IMG/VR virus record: IMGVR_UViG_3300035698_017129
Origin: an uncultured virus (IMG/VR IMGVR_UViG_3300035698_017129)
Lineage: Duplodnaviria > Heunggongvirae > Uroviricota > Caudoviricetes
DNA length: 20,000 nt
Reading direction: 5' to 3' (one strand)
Numbering within the stretch: position 1 is the first letter of the stretch; each line of letters opens with the position of its first letter. Positions 6,968 through 20,000 of this stretch are shown here, piece by piece. A program made the translations under genes and the position numbers. The notes under the pieces are model-generated. The model was given only the letters and a program-made list of their open reading frames with translations, had not been told where the DNA came from and did no database searches.

Positions 6968-9900
6968 ATGAGCGACGACAACTCGAGCACCGAAGAAGAA
7001 CAACGCCTCTACCGTGAGCGTGCTCTGGCGCGGGGTCAGGACGCTGACTGCGACCCTGTTGAATTGGTGCTGCAACCTGACGTAGACCCGGTAGCTCCAG
7101 TAGCTCCAGCTGAGAAATGCGACCCACCAGAGGAGGCGCAGGAAGCGGAGTTCTTACCCGCACGTCCGCTGCCGACCGCTGATACACCACCGGATCTTCT
7201 CCCCGAGCCCTTGTCGGTCCTGAACCGCGCTGTGTCTGTCCCGTGCCCGGGCAGCTCCATTGCCTTGGGTGGCAGCTCTAACCCCAGTAATGTCGGCGCC
7301 GGCGAAGACGAGCAATTAGTTTACCTCGATGAGGTAGAGGAGATCACGCAGGACGAGGTGTTCCGCCTCGCTGTTCATATTCCAGCGTTACAGGCGCATG
7401 TGACCTCTGACCTCCTCGCCGCAATAGACGGGGCTGACTTCACCGCATTCGACGCAGAGATCGTCAATATTACGCAGACCTCACCGGCGATCGCCGTCTT
7501 AATCCGCGTCGACCTAGTGGCGGCGTCGGTGCGTGCTGACGCTGTAGCCAATACCATCGCCCTCGCAGGGCTGTCGTGCGGATGGCTCAACGCTGAGCTC
7601 TGGGTGACTTGCCAGGTAGCCACGCCCGGTTACGCCATCGCTTACTCAGACCCAGCAGCGGCCGTGCAAGCGGGCCCTGCTGCGGCAGGGACGTTCTCAT
7701 CCGAGATCGACCAAGCTGACGCGGACGACCAGGCGGCCAGGTCTCTGGCACTTGAATTAACCTGCCTCGTGCTAAACAATACGCTAGAAGATATCTCTTG
7801 CTCAGACGTCGCCGGGATGATCGATGAGACTATGGAGTTGCCAAAGTGGCCTGTGAACTGGACCAAAGCTGCAGACCCGGTAGAGGCTGCCAGAGGTAAC
7901 CAGGTCGTCACGCTCGAGGCCCAAGGTGCCGGCACCTGGACAGTGGCGGACTGGGATGATTTCGAGAGTAACACAGAGGCGGTCGACTTGAATGACCTGA
8001 ACGGTCAGCAGTTCATGCAGGAGTCACAGGTCGGCTCTGGTGAGCGCCGCACGCTCAGAACTCGGTCACGCGTCGACGTCGGCGACGTCAGGACAGCCGC
8101 AGCTACCGTGCTGGAGGCCAATGCGATCGCTTACAACCTTGCTGTGGCAGAGCTGGACTGCTTCGTCCCCAACCGACCTAGAGTGATTTCCTGTATTTCC
8201 GCGGACTATGGGGAAGCAGACGTCATCACACGATCCGGCGGGTTAGGGCTTTCGGCTGCTGACGTGGGCCGTGAGGTCATGTATGCGGAACTGCTGGGAG
8301 CTGACTCAGCTGCTCCCGGCGAGCGTGACAACGCTTATTTAACCGCAAACTACGGCGGCCCTGACTACGAGCGCACTAACCAGGGCGTCGTCAACTACGG
8401 CCTGAACCCGGAGGCCGCAGATACTACGATCGCTTTCGAGGTCTACGTCTGGCCTGGCTACTTCTCAGATGTGGACGTCGCACTCGTGGAGGCCACGGCA
8501 GGTAATCATGCCCAGGGCTTAATGCAATGCCTCTGGATTTCCCTGAAGCATCGCAGCGCCTGTGCGTCGACCGAGGCGGATCGAGACCAAACTGCAACGA
8601 GCACGCAAGAGGACCTGTCCTCCAAGTTCTCTGACGGTGATGTCTCTGACGAGGGCGCAATCCTGGACACGGATCGGTCAATCGATACGAACGAGCTGCC
8701 CCGTGGATTCCTGACGCAAAGCGATTATCCAAACAAGACCGCCGACCCCACGATGGTTGGAGCCTACCAGTGGCCTGGTTTACCGGCGATTACACAGTCC
8801 GGGTTGTCCTGTCTATTTGTCTCCTGCAAGACGGCTTGCTGCGAGCCGAAGCCCGACGACCGCACTCACAAGGTCAACGGCATGGCAAATTACGCCACCT
8901 GGGGCGCTGCCGTGACAGTCCCGGCCGACGTCGGGTCTCAGGTTGCATTCATCGGTGCCTGGTCTGCGGCGCTTGCCAGTAAAACTTTTGTGGCCTGTAA
9001 CGCTTTAGAACCTGTCGGCGCCTTCACGCCGCAATCAGTCTACGATGATTGCGGTATCACATCGCCGCCCGCGTCATCTGGGACGAATGCTATCGCAGAC
9101 ATCGGCCCCAACTCAGGCGCTTACGGGACTCCGGCTCGGTTCAAATACGGCGGGATACTACCGTGGGGGCAGCAGTGGAAAGCTCCTGTGGGGAACGTAG
9201 TGCCGGACGATGGAGTCCTCCCCGGGGAAGTTAAAGGGTGCAACATTATTGCGACTGGGTCGATAGCCTCAGACGAATGGGGGTTCTACCATTGCGCAGA
9301 GGGTTACGCTGAAGGCTACGAACTCGATGGGCTCGGGGCGCAGGCGCGGCAGCTGGCGATAGGACGTTTGGACTGCACGCATATTGCGTGGCCCAGGCAT
9401 TTGGTCAACTGCCCGCAGCCTAACCAGAGAGGCTTTGCTGCGGCCACGACGATTGACATCATTACCGAGGGAACCTCCACGCGTGAGGCCAACGAGCAGG
9501 TCGAGAGTCTCATGCTGCCGCAGCTGAAGTGCAGGGACATGCACAACTTCATGCTTACGTTCAACGGGGGCGGTGGTGGCGGCAGCGACGGCGAGCTAAA
9601 CCTCTTGGGGCCTGTGGTGGCGAACATCGGCGGCGTTGACGCATGCCTGCCTGCTGGCCTGTCGGAGGCTATCCTCTACGAGGACGACTGCGAGACAGTC
9701 GTTGACGCTTTTGCGATGGATGCGGACGTAAGCTCCCACGTTTTCATCGAGGTCAAATGCTGCACAGACCTGGACCCTGTGCCGCCGGAGAAACGGATGA
9801 TTTTGCACGTCGAGGCGGCGGACGCCGCAATCGCTTCTGAAATTCGCAATGTTGCTAATGATTCTCTCCAGAGAGGTAAGTGGGGTCTACCATCTGGCCG

Positions 9901-10564
9901 CGCCAAGCTTGCGACCATGAGAGCAGTAGCTGGTGCCGGTGAGATCTGGTATATCGGGAGCTACTACGTGGAAAACACCACGGGGAACGGTAACTCCTCC
10001 GAGGACTCCGAGAGACTCGTAGTGCAGGCCCACTCCGGCCCCATCACCATGAGCCAGACCTGTTGCAATACGCAGCTGCAGGAGTGGCGCATATCCCCCG
10101 GCGCAGATCAAACGACGGTGGACTTGTTTGTCGGCACCATCTCAGGCATGGGCTTGTCGAATGCTCCGCCGGACACCTATAGTATTTTCACGAACGAGGA
10201 GCTCACCATGCTCGGTGGAGGCGCGGCGATAACTTACATCTGCCTCGAAATAACATTCGAGCCCAACTCTGTGGAGGTCCCGTCCGGCGTGGGATACAGG
10301 ATCGCAGACGGCGGAACAATTACCGATACGACCCTAGAGCTCAAGACTGCCGCCACACTGTCTGCTTACACGGCGACAACACCTGTAATCGACGGGACGA
10401 CTGGTGCTGCCACTACGGACGGCGTATTCCTGATCATCATAGGGTCCGCTGTAGGAGGTAGTGTAACAAACACACGCATCGGCGCCCTGACGGTTTACTT
10501 CTGCGCGCCGAATAGCGCAGGCGTCGTGTCGGACGGGAACGACTTCGTCCTCCCAGCCCCGTAA
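6968..10564 (+). CDS. Large acidic Cys-rich repeat protein, putative tail appendage (DUF5977-like repeats)
   Basis: 1198 aa with about 30 Cys by manual count. Recurrent helix-L-x-C-x(10-11)-C units. AGTFSSEIDQADADDQA resembles the DUF5977 core as recalled. A GGGGGG linker precedes beta-rich C-terminal domains. Confidence 0.55.
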   Translation: MSDDNSSTEEEQRLYRERALARGQDADCDPVELVLQPDVDPVAPVAPAEKCDPPEEAQEAEFLPARPLPTADTPPDLLPEPLSVLNRAVSVPCPGSSIALGGSSNPSNVGAGEDEQLVYLDEVEEITQDEVFRLAVHIPALQAHVTSDLLAAIDGADFTAFDAEIVNITQTSPAIAVLIRVDLVAASVRADAVANTIALAGLSCGWLNAELWVTCQVATPGYAIAYSDPAAAVQAGPAAAGTFSSEIDQADADDQAARSLALELTCLVLNNTLEDISCSDVAGMIDETMELPKWPVNWTKAADPVEAARGNQVVTLEAQGAGTWTVADWDDFESNTEAVDLNDLNGQQFMQESQVGSGERRTLRTRSRVDVGDVRTAAATVLEANAIAYNLAVAELDCFVPNRPRVISCISADYGEADVITRSGGLGLSAADVGREVMYAELLGADSAAPGERDNAYLTANYGGPDYERTNQGVVNYGLNPEAADTTIAFEVYVWPGYFSDVDVALVEATAGNHAQGLMQCLWISLKHRSACASTEADRDQTATSTQEDLSSKFSDGDVSDEGAILDTDRSIDTNELPRGFLTQSDYPNKTADPTMVGAYQWPGLPAITQSGLSCLFVSCKTACCEPKPDDRTHKVNGMANYATWGAAVTVPADVGSQVAFIGAWSAALASKTFVACNALEPVGAFTPQSVYDDCGITSPPASSGTNAIADIGPNSGAYGTPARFKYGGILPWGQQWKAPVGNVVPDDGVLPGEVKGCNIIATGSIASDEWGFYHCAEGYAEGYELDGLGAQARQLAIGRLDCTHIAWPRHLVNCPQPNQRGFAAATTIDIITEGTSTREANEQVESLMLPQLKCRDMHNFMLTFNGGGGGGSDGELNLLGPVVANIGGVDACLPAGLSEAILYEDDCETVVDAFAMDADVSSHVFIEVKCCTDLDPVPPEKRMILHVEAADAAIASEIRNVANDSLQRGKWGLPSGRAKLATMRAVAGAGEIWYIGSYYVENTTGNGNSSEDSERLVVQAHSGPITMSQTCCNTQLQEWRISPGADQTTVDLFVGTISGMGLSNAPPDTYSIFTNEELTMLGGGAAITYICLEITFEPNSVEVPSGVGYRIADGGTITDTTLELKTAATLSAYTATTPVIDGTTGAATTDGVFLIIIGSAVGGSVTNTRIGALTVYFCAPNSAGVVSDGNDFVLPAP

Positions 10565-10568
10565 TCGG

Positions 10569-11435
10569 ATGCCTACCTTCATACTGCTCAGCTCAGACAA
10601 TAAATCGACGACACAGTGCGTGTTTTGTTCGGGGCCTCGCGAGTTGTTTACGGAGTTTTTCATTCGCCGCCGGGGGCGTGGTTTGGAGGCTTTTGCAAAC
10701 GCCAAGAAGGTAGATTTGATTGTTACCACCCCTGCTCACGCGGAATCCGGCTGGTATCAGACTGGGACATACGAAGAGACTTGGCAGCTCTGGGACACCC
10801 TCGCGGATCCTCAGGAGGTGGTATCTACCGCGACAGTAGGTTACGATTGGGTGTCGAATGGGCCCAAGGTTGTGTTGACCATCGGCGCTAAGGATGTGGT
10901 CGAGACTCCATTCGACAACCGCGGCTCATCAGGCGTTGGGGAAGAGTGGCGCATCCAGGTATCCGAGCTGAATAGTTTGGCGGACGAGGTGGTGAAGGCT
11001 GACATTGTGAGCGTTGTCTCAGATCTGTCAGCGGAGCCGTGGTTACCGATTGGTGATATTGTTAACAGCCGCGGATCAACTGGCTACGATGCTAACGCTG
11101 GTTACGGTAGATCGCTCGAGGTTGAGTGGCAGCCTTATTCCGTCCCCTACGACTTCGGCGCCGGTACATACGACGTGGTTAAAACGGACCCCGAGTCTGT
11201 CGGGGTGGGGTCCATTGACGGGATATATCAGTTCGGCGACTGGGCGGCAGAAACACCTGTCCCGGAGAGCGTCACCATCCCGTGGGACGCCACCGGCTAC
11301 TTCTGGGACGATACCATTTGGAAGACCCTCGCATTCGCAGAGGACACGGAAGGATGGGCGCAGACGACTAACGACACGGATGAGTTAGATGTATGGGGTT
11401 ACCCCTATGTTTACGCAGATCATTATTCCACATGA
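10569..11435 (+). CDS. Hypothetical Trp/Tyr/Asp-rich protein, probably virion-associated
   Basis: 288-aa ORF starting 4 nt after the preceding stop. Acidic, aromatic and beta-rich composition. Confidence 0.55.
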   Translation: MPTFILLSSDNKSTTQCVFCSGPRELFTEFFIRRRGRGLEAFANAKKVDLIVTTPAHAESGWYQTGTYEETWQLWDTLADPQEVVSTATVGYDWVSNGPKVVLTIGAKDVVETPFDNRGSSGVGEEWRIQVSELNSLADEVVKADIVSVVSDLSAEPWLPIGDIVNSRGSTGYDANAGYGRSLEVEWQPYSVPYDFGAGTYDVVKTDPESVGVGSIDGIYQFGDWAAETPVPESVTIPWDATGYFWDDTIWKTLAFAEDTEGWAQTTNDTDELDVWGYPYVYADHYST

Positions 11436-11438
11436 AAG

Positions 11439-11467
11439 TTGACACCAGGGGCGGCGGGTCTTAGATC
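11439..11467 (+). promoter_or_regulatory. Sigma-70-like promoter TTGACA-N17-TAGATC
   Basis: Perfect -35, 17-bp spacer and a weak -10 (3/6) in a 38-bp intergenic gap. The ATG at 11474 follows the -10 after 6 nt. Confidence 0.55.
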
Positions 11468-11473
11468 TGTAAC

Positions 11474-11860
11474 ATGTCGCTCTTTATCGCAACGCTTCTC
11501 GTAGCCACTTGGACTGCAGCGTGGCTGCACTGGATCTTCAAAGGGGAAATTCGCCAATTTCTATTCGCTTATTTATTTCCAGCGGCCTGGCGGAGCGGGC
11601 GGACACCAGCGGATGTTTTATCGCTCAGCGGTGACGAGATGGAAATGTTCATCGCAGCTGAGTCTGCTGCGCCGGCGTTCGTGCGCGGCGTCCTGGGTTG
11701 CCCGAGTTGCCTTTCCGCTTACGTGTCGGCGGTTGGTGTGGTGCTTGCCAACGTCTGCATAATGCTGCCGTCTCTTGGATTTGTCGGGGCGGTGTGCGCT
11801 ACACCGCTGGTCTGGGCAGGAGGAGCCTGGGCCGGGCATAGATTCCACAGCCGCTTCTAA
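11474..11860 (+). CDS. Small membrane protein with CxxC (DUF1360-like)
   Basis: 128 aa. N-terminal hydrophobic helix, then VLGCPSCLSAYV leading into two further hydrophobic segments, similar to the LxCPxCxSxW signature recalled for DUF1360. Confidence 0.55.
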   Translation: MSLFIATLLVATWTAAWLHWIFKGEIRQFLFAYLFPAAWRSGRTPADVLSLSGDEMEMFIAAESAAPAFVRGVLGCPSCLSAYVSAVGVVLANVCIMLPSLGFVGAVCATPLVWAGGAWAGHRFHSRF

Positions 11861-11865
11861 CTTTT

Positions 11866-12279
11866 ATGCGAATACGAATTTTCAGAGTAGACAAGTCGAC
11901 AGGGGATCGTATCCCGTGGATCATGCTGCTCGACGACGAGCAAGTATTAATCGACGAATACGTCGACACAACGGGCGGATCATTCGTTCCCTCGCGCTCA
12001 AGCATGCATTTAGGTGATAGCCCGGAGAAGCCGGCCCCTGTCAGACCCGAGCGTAAAGTGGCTGTAGCGGTGGCGAGGTGGGCATCTGAGATAATAAAGG
12101 AAAACCCTATCTCCGGGACTGATGCCCTGCGTCTTCAGTATTTCGAGGAACTCAAGGCTCTCAAAGATTCCCACAAGGCGGCAGGCACAGATTGCCCGGG
12201 GTGTGAGCTGTCTGCCTTGATGCGCCGCTACAGGTCTAAACTGGAGCAGGAGGGGAGTATCCTCGATCGCCTGGTATGA
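11866..12279 (+). CDS. Hypothetical protein with C-terminal helix-CxxC-helix motif
   Basis: 137 aa containing LRLQYFEELKALK...DCPGCELSALMRRYRSKL. Confidence 0.6.
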   Translation: MRIRIFRVDKSTGDRIPWIMLLDDEQVLIDEYVDTTGGSFVPSRSSMHLGDSPEKPAPVRPERKVAVAVARWASEIIKENPISGTDALRLQYFEELKALKDSHKAAGTDCPGCELSALMRRYRSKLEQEGSILDRLV

Positions 12280-12443
12280 AACCTCCCAAGCTGCCAGGTA
12301 TGGAAGCGTTCCCGGAGATGGAGAAGAAGTATCGCGCTAAGTATATGGTGGCGGGCCGCGTCAAGAGTTGCGCAGCGTGCGAGCGCTCCAAAGTCGTGAA
12401 GGCATTCCGGATTCAATTAGAGCGGCGACAGCAGGGCGCGTGA
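12276..12443 (+). CDS. Small basic CxxC protein, 55 aa (not in the ORF track)
   Basis: Manual translation: MKPPKLPGMEAFPEMEKKYRAKYMVAGRVKSCAACERSKVVKAFRIQLERRQQGA. It has an ATGA overlap with the upstream gene, fills an otherwise empty gap, and resembles the upstream protein's C-terminal domain. Confidence 0.7.
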   Translation: MKPPKLPGMEAFPEMEKKYRAKYMVAGRVKSCAACERSKVVKAFRIQLERRQQGA

Positions 12444-12477: not shown

Positions 12478-13212
12478 ATGGATCCATCCTTTGAAACCCC
12501 ACCTGCTGCCTTGCCGGATACCACCGAGTCGCTCTACGACAACTGGAAGCTGGACCCATCCCCGGCCAACATGGGACGCGTGGTAAAGTCCATGGACAGC
12601 ACCATCGGTTACAAGCTGTCTTCGATGGGTGTGGGGAACAACCCTCAGATGCGCCACCAGGCCCGCTTGTTCGCCGCTGACGCTGTGCAGAAGTTTGACC
12701 CAGGATCCGGAACAACGCTCAGGACGTGGACGCAGAGCCAGCTCCAGAGCATGCAACGCTTCAAGCGGGAGAACCAGGGGCCGGTAAAAGTTCCCGACCG
12801 CGCCGCCATCGATGCGTGGAGTATCGAGCGGTCCAAGCGGGAGCTGGAGGACGAGACGGGCTTAGAACCAGACGTCAAGCAGCTCGCTGATAGGTCCGGG
12901 TTGTCGGTCAAACGTATCGCCGCAGTGCGGAAGATCACGCGCCCCGTGGCTGCGGAAGCACAAATGTATGAGGACGGCAACGAGCTACCGGACTATCTTG
13001 GTGAGGCGCTCGAGTATGTTTACGACGGATCGGACCGCATCGACAAGAAAATCATCGAGATGACAACAGGCTACGGAGGAACCCCGATGCTCAACAAAAA
13101 GGACATCGCGCTGAAGTTGGGGATCTCCGCATCTCAAGTGACGAGGCGCTCCGACAGAATCGGTATTCAAATCCAGGAAATGGACACGCAGATGGAGGAC
13201 GCATTCTCATGA
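12478..13212 (+). CDS. RNA polymerase sigma-70 family factor (SigF/SigG/FliA-like architecture, regions 2-3-4)
   Basis: AVQKFDPGSGTTLRTW resembles region 2.3. RENQGPVKVP resembles the region 2.4/3.0 junction. ELEDETGLEPDVKQLADRSGLS resembles the region 3 HTH. KKDIALKLGISASQVTR resembles the region 4 HTH. Confidence 0.85.
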   Translation: MDPSFETPPAALPDTTESLYDNWKLDPSPANMGRVVKSMDSTIGYKLSSMGVGNNPQMRHQARLFAADAVQKFDPGSGTTLRTWTQSQLQSMQRFKRENQGPVKVPDRAAIDAWSIERSKRELEDETGLEPDVKQLADRSGLSVKRIAAVRKITRPVAAEAQMYEDGNELPDYLGEALEYVYDGSDRIDKKIIEMTTGYGGTPMLNKKDIALKLGISASQVTRRSDRIGIQIQEMDTQMEDAFS

Positions 13213-13505
13213 GAGCCCACGGTATAGCTGACTTAGACGAGCGGACGCTGGCATTTCAGGAGCACCGCCAGGAAATTCAAGGGCGGATCCCCAAGGGGCC
13301 TTTCGAGTTCGCTGCCGACCTGGACTTCTCCGACATAGAACCGACCGCCACAGACCCACCGGTGGTGCAACGATTTAAGCTGGCTGTGAAACGTGATGCA
13401 AGGTATGCGGTAGCGTCCGCGCCGTATCTGCTTATCTTTGGGATGAGCCAATCCCTGAGATCCATTTACGACGGGGGCGGACAAATTCAAGACGGAGGCG
13501 GATGA
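13209..13505 (+). CDS. Hypothetical protein
   Basis: 98-aa ORF with ATGA overlaps at both ends. Confidence 0.55.
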   Translation: MRAHGIADLDERTLAFQEHRQEIQGRIPKGPFEFAADLDFSDIEPTATDPPVVQRFKLAVKRDARYAVASAPYLLIFGMSQSLRSIYDGGGQIQDGGG

Positions 13506-13906
13506 TGCGAGCACTTAAAATCAATTTCAACGGACCCAACGAGGTCTCGATCGACTGGAACGGAGAGGTCGAGGGCTTATCGTCGCTAGCGCAACGTGCC
13601 GGAGTTGCTGTGATGACGCAGGTCGGCTCGGACAAATTTATACCCAGCCGGGGAACTGCCGTTGCTCGGCGCTTATTCAGCTACGGAGTATTCGACCTCG
13701 TAGGCATGCAGCACACGCTCAACTTCGGCGCACTCAAGGCCCGACGGGACATGCAAGCTTATGAAGAGAACACACGAGCTGACGAAGACCGCACGGCCGC
13801 CGTCCGCATGAGTCTGATCGATGTGTCAGATAATGTGGCCGCTGTCAGTGTCTCCGTCACCAACCAGGCCGGCCAATCAACCCGCGAAATCGTCGAGATC
13901 GTATGA
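13502..13906 (+). CDS. Baseplate wedge / sheath initiator (T4 gp25 / P2 gpW-like)
   Basis: 134 aa. GLSSLAQRAGVAVMTQVGSDKFIPSRGT fits the gp25-family pattern Q...T..GS....P..G[TS]. Immediately upstream of a J-like gene, with GGAGG before the start. Confidence 0.7.
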   Translation: MMRALKINFNGPNEVSIDWNGEVEGLSSLAQRAGVAVMTQVGSDKFIPSRGTAVARRLFSYGVFDLVGMQHTLNFGALKARRDMQAYEENTRADEDRTAAVRMSLIDVSDNVAAVSVSVTNQAGQSTREIVEIV

Positions 13907-15657
13907 ACCTTAGTTTTACCGAAGAATTTTACCCAGATCTGAGCGAGCTGACCGAAGCGCAACTGGCCGAGGCTCGGGCAGAAGTCGTGGCGGTCCTCCA
14001 ACCTTCCATGCCGGACGTGGACCTGTCACCCGGGACACCGACCGGAGACTTTTGTGTGACGCCTCTCGCCGTATACCGCGCTGGGGCTGAGGAGGCCAAT
14101 AACAGGTTGATCAGCGATATGAATCTGGCGAACGTCGCTGATGGGTTGATTTACTCTTGCTCGTTCGTCCAAGCTTACCTGGGGAACTTCGCCGTTTACG
14201 ACGTGGAGAACCTGAAGGCTACGGGGCTGGTGAGGTTGACCTACACCGCCGCTACCGCCCGCGTGATTGCGCGGACCATACGATTCCGGTTCGGGACAAC
14301 GGACGACTGGACCATTAAGGTAGCCGACCCGACAGCGACGGAGATCACCGTATTGGCCCCGGGCAGCTCGCACCCAGGCGACGCCGACACTTACATCCTG
14401 GCTCAGACCTCCGCGACCACCTGGTCTGTGGATATCCCTGTGGAGGGTGTGCTGAGCGCCCCGATCGAGGCTGGGTCTGCTGGAACGTCTACTGAAGTTC
14501 CTGCAGAGTTGGTGGGGATCGCAGCTGCCATCGACTTTCTTTCCGGACTACCGTCCTCCTCGTTGTCTGATCTGGCCAAGATGGCACGCAAGATCGCATT
14601 CTCGCTTACTGCTGGCTCGCGCGCAGCAACGAAGGCCCTCGTCTACCGGAATTGGCCGGAGTCGAACATGGTGTCACCCGTAGTCCCAGGAGACACAGAG
14701 ATGCAGCGTGTGGCTGCCGGCGCTGCTTTGGCACTCCAACCTCCTGCGGTGGACCTCTACTTCAGATCCGCTCGCGATATGCAGCGGGAGACGCAGAACA
14801 TCCGACTGGACTACGTCCTACCTGACGGCGGCGCCGACAAAGTGTTCCGCGGTGTGTTGCCTCTTTTGCACCGTCCATCCCGTATCGTCAGCGTTGAATG
14901 GTCCGGGACCACCACCACAAGCTTAATCACCAGCAAGGTCATTTACAGCAAGACGGACAGAACTGATCTCTACGGTAGCCTGCACTGCGGGACGCGCTAC
15001 GAGTCGCTTTTCGCCGACGTAGTTCCTGTGGTAGACGGCGGCGACCTCCCTCTTATTCCTCGCCTGGATGACGGTAACGGCGGGTTGTATGCGATTTTCA
15101 CGGTCGTCTACGATGCCGACCCTCTCCTGGAGACCGTGTCTTCGCTGTTGGAGTCCCCGGACTACCGCCCTGCTGGCGTTGATGTATTGACCAAGTCCGG
15201 CCCCTTGATTCTGTTGAGCGACATCACTGTGACCTACACCAAGAAGCAAGGCGTGAAGACGACGCTGAGTGTTGCCAGGGAAAAAATAGTCGAATACCTG
15301 CGGACGGCCGGGTCTCCCGATCCTTTCCGCGTCACAGAGATCCACGACATCGTCCGTAACGCAGGGGCCGAGAGCGTGATCTCAGTCGACGTTACCGGTC
15401 TAACTACCGTGTCGGCCGGTGATCGCCTTCTTCGCGACACCGTAGTCGACCCAGGAGACGCAGACATAACGGACAACTGGGCGACCGAGTCGGACGCTTT
15501 CGATACGGACGCCGTCACAACGATTGCCGAGCTCACCGCCCCTAACCACATCGTTGACGGAGAGATATCCGCCGGAATACCTGATGCCTGGGCAGCCACC
15601 ACGCGCACTGTACGCTACGCTGTCGACCCGGAGAACGTGAATTTCGTTGAGACCTGA
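13903..15657 (+). CDS. Baseplate J-like wedge protein (T4 gp6 / P2 gpJ family)
   Basis: 584 aa. N-terminal PDVDLSPGTPTGDFCVTPLA, then KATGLVRLTY and VVPGDTEMQR...AVDLY, all typical of J-like proteins. Follows the gp25-like gene. Confidence 0.75.
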   Translation: MNLSFTEEFYPDLSELTEAQLAEARAEVVAVLQPSMPDVDLSPGTPTGDFCVTPLAVYRAGAEEANNRLISDMNLANVADGLIYSCSFVQAYLGNFAVYDVENLKATGLVRLTYTAATARVIARTIRFRFGTTDDWTIKVADPTATEITVLAPGSSHPGDADTYILAQTSATTWSVDIPVEGVLSAPIEAGSAGTSTEVPAELVGIAAAIDFLSGLPSSSLSDLAKMARKIAFSLTAGSRAATKALVYRNWPESNMVSPVVPGDTEMQRVAAGAALALQPPAVDLYFRSARDMQRETQNIRLDYVLPDGGADKVFRGVLPLLHRPSRIVSVEWSGTTTTSLITSKVIYSKTDRTDLYGSLHCGTRYESLFADVVPVVDGGDLPLIPRLDDGNGGLYAIFTVVYDADPLLETVSSLLESPDYRPAGVDVLTKSGPLILLSDITVTYTKKQGVKTTLSVAREKIVEYLRTAGSPDPFRVTEIHDIVRNAGAESVISVDVTGLTTVSAGDRLLRDTVVDPGDADITDNWATESDAFDTDAVTTIAELTAPNHIVDGEISAGIPDAWAATTRTVRYAVDPENVNFVET

Positions 15658-19143: not shown

Positions 19144-20000
19144 ATGGGAGCTATTCGCGTATTCAAAAGATTCCAGAGCCTCCTCGACGTTGATTTCTCA
19201 GCGGCGGCGGAAGGCTTTGTCCCGACATATCGCACCGCTTCCGGTAAGTTTGAGATGGGGGCTGGCGGCGGCACCACTAACCACGGACTACTAGTAGGTT
19301 TAGGTGACGACGATCATCCTCATTATCTTAATAACGCAAGGGGCGATGCAAGATACGCAAGCACAGCCCAAGGAGCTAAGGCAGATTCTGCTTTACAGGC
19401 GGGAGACAACATCTCGCAACTTAACAATAATTCAAACTTTACTGGCGATCAGGACTTGTCAGGGCTCCAGCCAAAACCATCAGAAGGTCAGTTTGTCGAT
19501 GGAGACAAGGCGAAGCTCGACGGGGTCTCTGGAACGAACACAGGCGATCAGACGGGAACGGAGATCAAGGCGGCTTATGAGGGCGTGTCGGATACGAATG
19601 CTTTTACGGATGCGGAGAAGGCAAAGCTGGCGACTCTGTTCGGCGGTGTCAATAACCTCGCCGCGACGACGGCCCCGGATGCTGATGATGACGGGGCTGA
19701 TACGGGTGGCAACGGTGCGTTTTCGGTGGGGTCGCTTTGGGTCGATCTGGTGGCGGACGAGACTTATCGCCTTGTGGATGCTTCGACGGGTGCGGCGGTC
19801 TGGCTGAACACGAGTGTGACGGTCGATGACTTGGCTGCGATTGCGATCTCGGGCAATGTGTCGGATCTGGTGGGCACGCTGTTGACGGCACAGATCGGCA
19901 ATAACCAGGTGACGAACGGCAAGCTGGCGGAGATGGCGCAGGCGACGATCAAGGGCCGGGCGTCTGCTACGGGGACTGGCGATGCGGTGGACCTGACGGC
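19144..20000 (+). CDS. Tail fibre-like protein, 3'-truncated (not in the ORF track)
   Basis: ATG 1 nt after the previous stop, open to the window end (at least 285 codons): MGAIRVFKRF...HGLLVGLGDDDHPHYL...STAQGAKADSALQ...DGDKAKLDG...TNTGDQ...EIKAAYE...NAFTDAEKAKL...FSVGSLW...VTNGKLAEMAQATIKGRA...GTGDAVDLT. This is a string of short fibre-shaft-type motifs. Confidence 0.75.
   Translation, partial: MGAIRVFKRFQSLLDVDFSAAAEGFVPTYRTASGKFEMGAGGGTTNHGLLVGLGDDDHPHYLNNARGDARYASTAQGAKADSALQAGDNISQLNNNSNFTGDQDLSGLQPKPSEGQFVDGDKAKLDGVSGTNTGDQTGTEIKAAYEGVSDTNAFTDAEKAKLATLFGGVNNLAATTAPDADDDGADTGGNGAFSVGSLWVDLVADETYRLVDASTGAAVWLNTSVTVDDLAAIAISGNVSDLVGTLLTAQIGNNQVTNGKLAEMAQATIKGRASATGTGDAVDLT

Follow-up and report, generated by a model that had tools for sequence, protein, structure and literature searches.

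Poxviruses encode a pathway of three viral proteins (E10R, A2.5L and G4L), one of which is membrane-associated and each of which carries one redox-type Cys motif, and this pathway serves Cys-rich virion clients in a reducing compartment. A2.5L and Mia40 are both small helical carriers of a non-thioredoxin type. In DsbB and VKOR, a CxxC at the membrane interface opens a helix and soluble CxxC proteins act as partners; these four-helix enzymes also depend on a second Cys pair and are oriented towards the periplasm or lumen. The zinc hook of Rad50 is an antiparallel hairpin with a CPxC at its tip, one CxxC per chain and two chains per metal. In this study, we analysed a cassette of three small open reading frames (ORF1, ORF2 and ORF3), each encoding one CxxC, in DNA of a large, uncultured water phage of the Caudoviricetes (IMG/VR IMGVR_UViG_3300035698_017129). 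The whole stretch of 20,000 nucleotides (nt) is referred to here as the window. We tentatively suggest that the cassette is a membrane-anchored thiol-exchange module that matures a Cys-rich tail protein.

The likeness of the cassette to E10R-A2.5L-G4L and to Mia40-Erv1 is a resemblance of logic alone, as the cassette has neither an Erv/ALR flavin adenine dinucleotide (FAD) domain nor a thioredoxin/glutaredoxin-fold member, and no homology was found. ORF1 shares with DsbB and VKOR the CxxC that opens a helix at the membrane interface, and ORF2 and ORF3 would be its soluble CxxC partners, whereas ORF1 has about three membrane segments, one Cys pair and a probable orientation towards the cytoplasm. 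ORF2 forms a helix-CPxC-helix hairpin in its AlphaFold2 (AF2) model, as in the Rad50 hook, but the cassette lacks long coiled coils, an ATPase and any sequence or fold match to Rad50. The DUF1360/phrog_781 family, which consists of small membrane proteins of phages, Bacillus and actinobacteria and has no known function, resembles ORF1 in size, in the N-terminal membrane helix, in the soluble loop and in a CxxC that we take to stand in DUF1360, too, before the C-terminal hydrophobic region; partners like ORF2 and ORF3, in contrast, are not in the family description. YjcA of B. subtilis is presumably a DUF1360 protein. In PMC517825, yjcA appears as a sigma-E-controlled sporulation gene of B. subtilis, and the available portion of the B1 mycobacteriophage preprint gives no function to the DUF1360 family.

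The cassette genes and the candidate client lie as follows (aa, amino acids):
6968-10564, + strand: 1198-aa Cys-rich tail protein in the hub/spike gene position, the candidate client
11474-11860, + strand: ORF1, 128 aa, a DUF1360/phrog_781-like small membrane protein with CPSC at residues 76-79 (codons 11699-11710)
11866-12279, + strand: ORF2, 137 aa, soluble, with CPGC at residues 110-113 (codons 12193-12204)
12276-12443, + strand: ORF3, 55 aa, with CAAC at residues 32-35 (codons 12369-12380)

The preliminary description of this DNA had reported three successive ORFs with one CxxC each, and exactly this arrangement was found on the + strand, with a gap of 5 nt between ORF1 and ORF2 and an overlap of 4 nt (ATGA) between ORF2 and ORF3. 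The order ORF1-ORF2-ORF3-sigma-baseplate is repeated in each related metagenomic locus of sufficient length. These loci were obtained from scans of IMG/VR and metagenomes and comprise 16 true loci (L004-L019); two spurious ones, L020 and L021 (36% over 45 residues), were left out of every count. ORF2 homologues were located by tblastn in 16/16 loci, two of them clipped at the locus end, and the sigma gene was present in 14/14 loci reaching far enough. For ORF3, tblastn gave 11 loci and reading of the ORFs added L007, L018 and L019, which makes 14/14 again. The identity to the window was 70-77% for the sigma protein, 55-70% for the baseplate gene, 38-57% for ORF1, 33-43% for ORF2 (the 33% comes from a locus-end fragment, L012, and the range elsewhere is 35-43%) and 33-46% for ORF3 (tblastn). 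ORF1-ORF3 are genuine, coupled, syntenic genes. They form a single cassette per genome, as local hidden Markov model (HMM) searches of a complete relative (G001) gave no extra copies.

The cysteines of the three proteins are kept in their homologues, and none of the outcomes that the preliminary description had named as refuting was obtained. The relatives of ORF1 were 17 homologues from a word-indexed search and 49 representatives at E<=1e-3 from an exhaustive profile search, and the conservation alignments held 60 sequences for the ORF1 family, eight for ORF2 (A2) and eight for ORF3 (A3). P67, C76 and C79 alone are invariant in the ORF1 family (60/60), where every other Cys column reaches at most 6/60. 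The invariant residues are C110, P111 and C113 in ORF2 (8/8) and C32 and C35 in ORF3 (8/8), and the overall identity among the cassette homologues that keep the CxxC is 20-60%. CxxC motifs occur in 4/19 ORFs of the window, and the four are consecutive. In a complete relative, 29/141 + strand ORFs carry one, so a run of three CxxC ORFs is by itself not very rare, and the conservation of the CxxC is a stronger argument than mere adjacency.

That each of the three coupled proteins has a single invariant CxxC points to inter-chain chemistry, either thiol-disulfide exchange or the sharing or transfer of a metal. A lone CxxC per chain at a helix N-terminus cannot bind Zn alone and, in known proteins, is typical of exchange chemistry. 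We favour a thiol relay because a client with a disulfide-looking Cys pattern is encoded in the same module and no other redox gene was seen in the phage, because the CxxC of ORF1 is invariant far outside this lineage, as expected of a catalytic site, and because small helical carriers of a non-thioredoxin type have the precedents mentioned above.

ORF1 has an N-terminal membrane helix (residues 3-22), a loop of about 50 residues, a CPxC that starts a long hydrophobic stretch (77-120), which we take for a helical hairpin, and a short, basic C-terminus. In its AF2 model, the predicted local distance difference test (pLDDT) value is 98 in every block, and residues 77-127 form one unbroken helix of 51 residues. 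The first Cys sits at the break just before this helix, in agreement with the initial observation that CPSC opens a hydrophobic helix. Over the 60 ORF1-family sequences, loop 1 has on average 5.6 Lys and Arg and the C-terminus 1.85, compared with 0.1 for the N-terminus and 0.07 for the turn; by the positive-inside rule, this distribution would place the CxxC and the C-terminus of ORF1 in the cytoplasm. From hydropathy and charge, the likely topology is N-terminus out, loop in, CxxC at the inner helix end, an indel-rich turn out and C-terminus in, and the CxxC probably faces the cytoplasm.

ORF1 is, in our reading, an outlying branch of the DUF1360/phrog_781 superfamily, although by the curated threshold it is not a member. 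In architecture it agrees with DUF1360, being a membrane protein in the range of about 100-140 aa whose CxxC opens the C-terminal hydrophobic region. Its neighbours in the Atlas are DUF1360 clusters (features 0.90 with 214 shared; structure, template modelling (TM) score 0.50-0.62), and phrog_781 matched 23/60 ORF1-family members with a best E of 1e-5, while any other PHROG matched at most two. In G001, the sole phrog_781 match (E 0.033) falls on the ORF1 homologue. The DUF1360 link suggested in the preliminary description has sub-threshold support from these results and from PF07098, which hit 5/23 distant family members at 12-18 bits, under the gathering score of 21 bits, in alignments that always span the CxxC region (HMM positions 52-100). 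On ORF1 and all 19 close homologues, PF07098 gave nothing even at E<=10, and its count in the two complete relatives was 0/2. Similarly, phrog_781 did not match ORF1 of the window at E<=1, nor any of the 19 close homologues, and no model of Pfam, PHROG or NCBIfam matched ORF1 of the window. The BFVD fold search with ORF1 returned weak rows (best E 1.2), with three DUF1360 proteins among the highest TM-scores. Foldseek against PDB gave nothing at E<=0.001, and the best VIA wide hit was RC-LH1 protein W (Z 6.5); these fold-search results, the BFVD rows included, are at noise level. The profile search with the ORF1-family alignment A5 returned only its own members.

In its AF2 model (pLDDT 80), ORF2 begins with a three-stranded beta unit (1-33), which a disordered linker (38-55) connects to a helical domain (61-128); in this domain, C110 and C113 lie at the hairpin tip between helices 86-106 and 112-128. 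By sequence, ORF3 is a paralogue of the C-terminal helical hairpin of ORF2 with its CxxC at the tip: hhalign of A3 against A2 gave 95.6% (E 1.1e-8) with the CxxC positions aligned, and HMMER cross-matches between the two had E values of 0.0014 and 0.0033 in a small local database. The hairpin of ORF2 and ORF3 is, as judged from these alignments, a new soluble CxxC hairpin family. Neither protein matched Pfam, PHROG or NCBIfam. For ORF2, the word-indexed protein search and the single-protein viral scan were empty, the Atlas gave no usable lead, Foldseek against PDB gave nothing at E<=0.001 and the best VIA wide Z of 5.2 is at noise level. PDB sequence searches with A2, A3 and A6 returned nothing below E 0.4.

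No hydrophobic segment, signal peptide or lipobox was found in ORF2 or ORF3, so both are expected in the cytoplasm, on the same side as the CxxC of ORF1. A natural fusion agrees with this placement. In the metagenomic protein P0014 (214 aa), ORF1 is fused to the ORF2 hairpin domain (residues 144-211 against ORF2 59-127, E 1e-14), which suggests that the soluble domain of ORF2 lies on the side of the ORF1 C-terminus; this fusion is one observation on one contig and a read-through artefact is possible. Another apparent fusion, P0035, resembles an extension of the upstream ORF. Co-folding of ORF1, ORF2 and ORF3 with Zn and with ORF2 as partner had a score of 0.02 where the mark was 0.32, and it weighs on neither side.

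The 1198-aa protein is the prime candidate client. The preliminary description had placed a protein of about 30 Cys two genes 5' of the cassette, and we counted 30 Cys (2.5%) in it with one ORF intervening. It has no CxxC, and its Cys content exceeds the 0-1.6% of the remaining ORFs outside the cassette. In an alignment of four sequences from three lineages, 26 Cys are kept at 38-54% identity (25 columns are full and one is shifted by a residue). The variable Cys appear or vanish in pairs (530 with 609, 907/908 with 932, 1092 with 1179), which is the behaviour of disulfide partners, as far as three lineages can tell. Thus, the Cys pattern looks disulfide-like, and the protein may be disulfide-bonded. 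Repeats of the form A-x3-A-x2-L-x3-L-x-C-x(10-11)-C were also seen in it, e.g., near 204/215, 266/278, 398/409, 521/532 and 803/815. Pfam, PHROG, NCBIfam and cultured phages gave no match to this protein. Homologues of it were located 4-7 kb 5' of the cassette in L004/L005, L007 and L014, and L015 contains a fragment; wherever a related locus extends far enough upstream, it has both the Cys-rich gene and the cassette.

According to the relay that we favour, ORF1 would sit in the inner membrane and expose its CPxC where a membrane helix meets the cytoplasm, while ORF2 and ORF3 would be soluble paralogues with one hairpin-tip CxxC each. The N-terminal beta unit of ORF2 could hold a partner or client. 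The three Cys pairs would exchange mutually, and oxidising equivalents would pass from the membrane protein to the soluble hairpins and from these to Cys-rich tail proteins, above all to the conserved 1198-aa protein encoded upstream. The inferred parts of this relay are the physical contact among ORF1-3, any redox activity, the acceptor of the electrons and the choice of client. A more specific form of this proposal, which we hold to be somewhat unlikely, is that the cassette is the first phage-encoded cytoplasmic disulfide relay, with a DUF1360-type thiol oxidase, two hairpin carriers and a tail-tip protein stapled before lysis; in it, ORF1 would be the thiol oxidase, perhaps coupled to quinone.

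Six-frame family searches of two complete relatives gave 0/2 for each of thioredoxin, glutaredoxin, Erv, VKOR and DsbB. As no other redox gene was found in the relatives, the cassette is the sole candidate if the phage supplies such a function. A kinship with VKOR, DsbB or Erv/ALR, for which the preliminary description had proposed a check, found no support. ORF1 had no HMM match to VKOR (PF07884) or DsbB (PF02600) and lacks the second Cys pair of both. Erv/ALR (PF04777) had no Pfam match on ORF1-3, and no Erv was among the fold-search rows listed. Thioredoxin and glutaredoxin likewise had no HMM match on ORF1-3, and the CxxC of the ORF2 model lies within an all-helical domain. No cofactor-binding family was detected for the cassette proteins. 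With the ORF1 model as query, Foldseek listed human VKOR at E values of 3.1-5.8 and TM scores of 0.20-0.23, which is noise level. The idea of oxidative folding, as it was first put, is partly supported: the conserved CxxC, the co-occurring disulfide-like Cys-rich protein and the DUF1360 link speak for it, and no oxidase kinship, thioredoxin fold or second Cys pair of ORF1 was found.

Several points weigh against a thiol relay. None of the computed results contains a redox activity, an electron acceptor, a cofactor site or an oxidase signature. DsbB and VKOR need two Cys pairs and four membrane segments, while ORF1 has a single pair and about three segments, and neither fold nor profile searches linked the cassette to VKOR, DsbB, Erv or thioredoxin. 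The single helix 77-127 of the AF2 model conflicts with the assumed hairpin topology, although the ORF1-family alignment has indels mid-way in this stretch and the charge pattern agrees with a helical hairpin. The earlier idea that the cassette is tied to a Cys-rich virion protein held in that the two occur together in all long-enough loci, but this co-occurrence is known from one phage lineage and is not an independent test. Moreover, 4-7 kb of variable sugar-modification genes part the Cys-rich gene from the cassette in the relatives, and this suggests that the cassette is fixed to the sigma/baseplate genes, not to the Cys-rich gene; its fixed place is beside the sigma factor. The virion disulfides may also form spontaneously after lysis, and a hairpin-tip CPxC suits a zinc hook equally well.

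The last point leads to a rival, in line with the alternatives of the preliminary description, that we consider doubtful in itself, though almost as likely as the relay. Here the cassette would be a metal-bridged scaffold or regulator in which the CxxC motifs of two chains share a Zn or an Fe-S cluster, so that ORF2 and/or ORF3 are tethered to ORF1 or to each other, either for tail or baseplate assembly or to hold and release the sigma factor in the manner of an anti-sigma factor or checkpoint. The helix-CPxC-helix of ORF2 with its invariant Pro recalls the Rad50 zinc hook, and the P0014 fusion of ORF1 and ORF2 suits a stable complex. All three CxxC probably lie in the cytoplasm, a reducing compartment, and cytoplasmic CxxC pairs usually bind metal. 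The invariance of the ORF1 CxxC far beyond the lineage, on the other hand, suggests an intrinsic role. For control of the sigma factor in particular, the cassette is directly 5' of the sigma gene in 14/14 loci of sufficient extent, the sigma gene is its only fixed neighbour, and the basic ORF3 (isoelectric point (pI) 10.2, net +9) would face an acidic sigma protein (pI 5.2). Yet this adjacency is seen in one lineage only and is not independent evidence, and across loci the identity is 70-77% for the sigma protein, against 33-43% for ORF2 and 33-46% for ORF3. The H-x3-C-x2-C arrangement of zinc anti-sigma (ZAS) factors is absent from ORF2 and ORF3: with no conserved His for it in A2 or A3 and no Pfam match, a ZAS factor was ruled out.

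Two other explanations appear improbable to us, and to the same degree. The CxxC sites might hand Cu(I), or a different thiophilic metal, along the three chains and to or from the membrane protein in the manner of Atx1/CopZ and so load or protect tail proteins. Metal chaperones use a single CxxC at a helix N-terminus, and such a motif stands in three successive proteins here, but the cassette has no ferredoxin-like HMA fold and no GMxCxxC motif, no metal-transporter family was detected, and a need for Cu in the tail module is not obvious. Alternatively, ORF1 might be a holin-like, superinfection-exclusion or other membrane effector with structural Cys, and ORF2 and ORF3 chemically unlinked accessories. 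The size and the two to three membrane segments of ORF1 are typical of holins, and 1/60 ORF1-family members weakly matched a holin PHROG (E 0.26). A conserved cytoplasmic loop of 50 residues and an invariant CxxC are, however, atypical of holins, and translation couples the three genes, with a fusion in one case. Neither ORF2 nor ORF3 carries a signal peptide or lipobox, hence they are not spanins, and the only recognised lysin of the complete relative G001 (Amidase_2) is about 57 kb from the cassette. A lysis cassette was considered unlikely on the same two points.

The other features of the locus are as follows:
10569-11435, + strand: 288-aa orphan ORF with an N-terminal CVFC, between the Cys-rich gene and ORF1
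11439-11466, + strand: promoter-like element 5' of ORF1 (TTGACA 11439-11444, TTAGAT 11461-11466)
12478-13212, + strand: sigma-70-family gene, 244 aa, directly 3' of the cassette
13903-15657, + strand: 584-aa baseplate-wedge-like gene (phrog_6, E 1.1e-4)
19144-19998, + strand: tail-fibre-like ORF with matches to tail-fibre PHROG families

By its gene content, the window is part of a tail/baseplate block with every gene on the + strand. Its 5' part holds a 1000-aa ORF with 0 Cys and three mid-sized ORFs, followed by the Cys-rich 1198-aa ORF, and 3' of the sigma gene come two small ORFs, the baseplate-wedge-like ORF, an 866-aa ORF and the tail-fibre-like ORF. The baseplate setting given in the preliminary description is in keeping with this gene order and with the PHROG matches, although the matches are weak, as the E value for phrog_6 indicates. 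No Rfam match was found within the window. The variable island of the relatives (L004 5200-9950; L007 3750-9950; L006 800-2500) contains glycosyltransferase-, hexapeptide-acetyltransferase-, methyltransferase- and sulfotransferase-like genes. The island position of the window is taken by the 288-aa orphan, which had no homologue in any fetched locus.

The product of 12478-13212 is, from its profile matches, a divergent sigma-70-family protein. It matched Pfam Sigma70_r3 (E 7e-6) and phrog_351 (E 1.3e-11), and its match to NCBIfam SigB/F/G (E 1.2e-8) is far under the cut-off. Its gene is the best conserved of the region, and ATGA overlaps couple it to the three genes that follow, as far as the baseplate wedge gene (12478-15657). 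Such placement and coupling are odd for a transcription factor, and the protein might be a virion-associated or assembly-coupled factor.

The two complete relatives measure 184 kb with terminal repeats (G001) and 200 kb. In G001, our scan covered 134/189 crude ORF calls; ORFs <60 aa, most minus-strand ORFs and 8 slice-border ORFs were excluded. Among its genes are those for beta- and beta'-like RNA polymerase subunits, for two sigma-like proteins and for a PolA-UDG fusion, as well as for an NAD-dependent ligase, a peptide deformylase and intein-containing helicases. A 1056-aa protein with a bactofilin domain was also noted in it (genome pieces L022-L031). Among cultured phages (INPHARED, tblastn), there was no match to ORF1, ORF2, the baseplate gene, the Cys-rich protein or the sigma protein, nor to two distant ORF1 relatives, and the bacterial genome scan gave just two short spurious matches. 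The gene set reported for the 'moraphage' lineage (PMC12619734) differs from the one seen here.

A promoter-like element of its own had also been attributed to the cassette. TTGACA is perfect at 11439-11444 and is followed by a 16-nt spacer, a TTAGAT that matches TATAAT at 3/6 and 7 nt to the ATG. TTGAC recurs at -36/-37 of the ORF1 start in 4/11 compared upstream regions (window 11439-11473; L007 9935-9970; L008 213-248; L015 3778-3814), and these four lineages have a weak T-T-A-G/A-like box about 8-13 nt 5' of the ATG. The consensus promoter scan did not call the element, which is thus only partly confirmed. No Shine-Dalgarno-like stretch was found between the element and the ATG of ORF1, nor at the same place in L007, L008 and L015. 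This short distance from promoter to ATG without a ribosome-binding stretch suggests that the ORF1 transcript would be a nearly leaderless mRNA.

Recent structures revealed that phage virions can be held together by disulfide bonds (PMC13576161; 10.64898/2026.07.24.740622). In the Discussion of the former (2026) and in the cross-linking section of the latter, a preprint (Jabs, also 2026), phage-encoded disulfide machinery is treated as unknown or as an open question, and these sections leave open whether the virion disulfides form spontaneously or with assistance. The cassette described here is a compact three-gene candidate for such machinery. Its design is unusual, as one membrane CxxC protein is combined with two paralogous single-CxxC hairpins and a natural fusion joins two of the parts; its novelty is that a known but uncharacterised membrane family is joined with a new soluble hairpin family. 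Whatever the chemistry, the cassette would provide a first functional handle on DUF1360/phrog_781 and would define the new soluble CxxC hairpin family. If the sigma factor is controlled by the cassette, phages would have a transcription checkpoint of a new kind inside a baseplate operon. If the disulfide relay with a DUF1360-type oxidase is true, membrane thiol oxidases would gain a new class in DUF1360/phrog_781, which is a widespread family.

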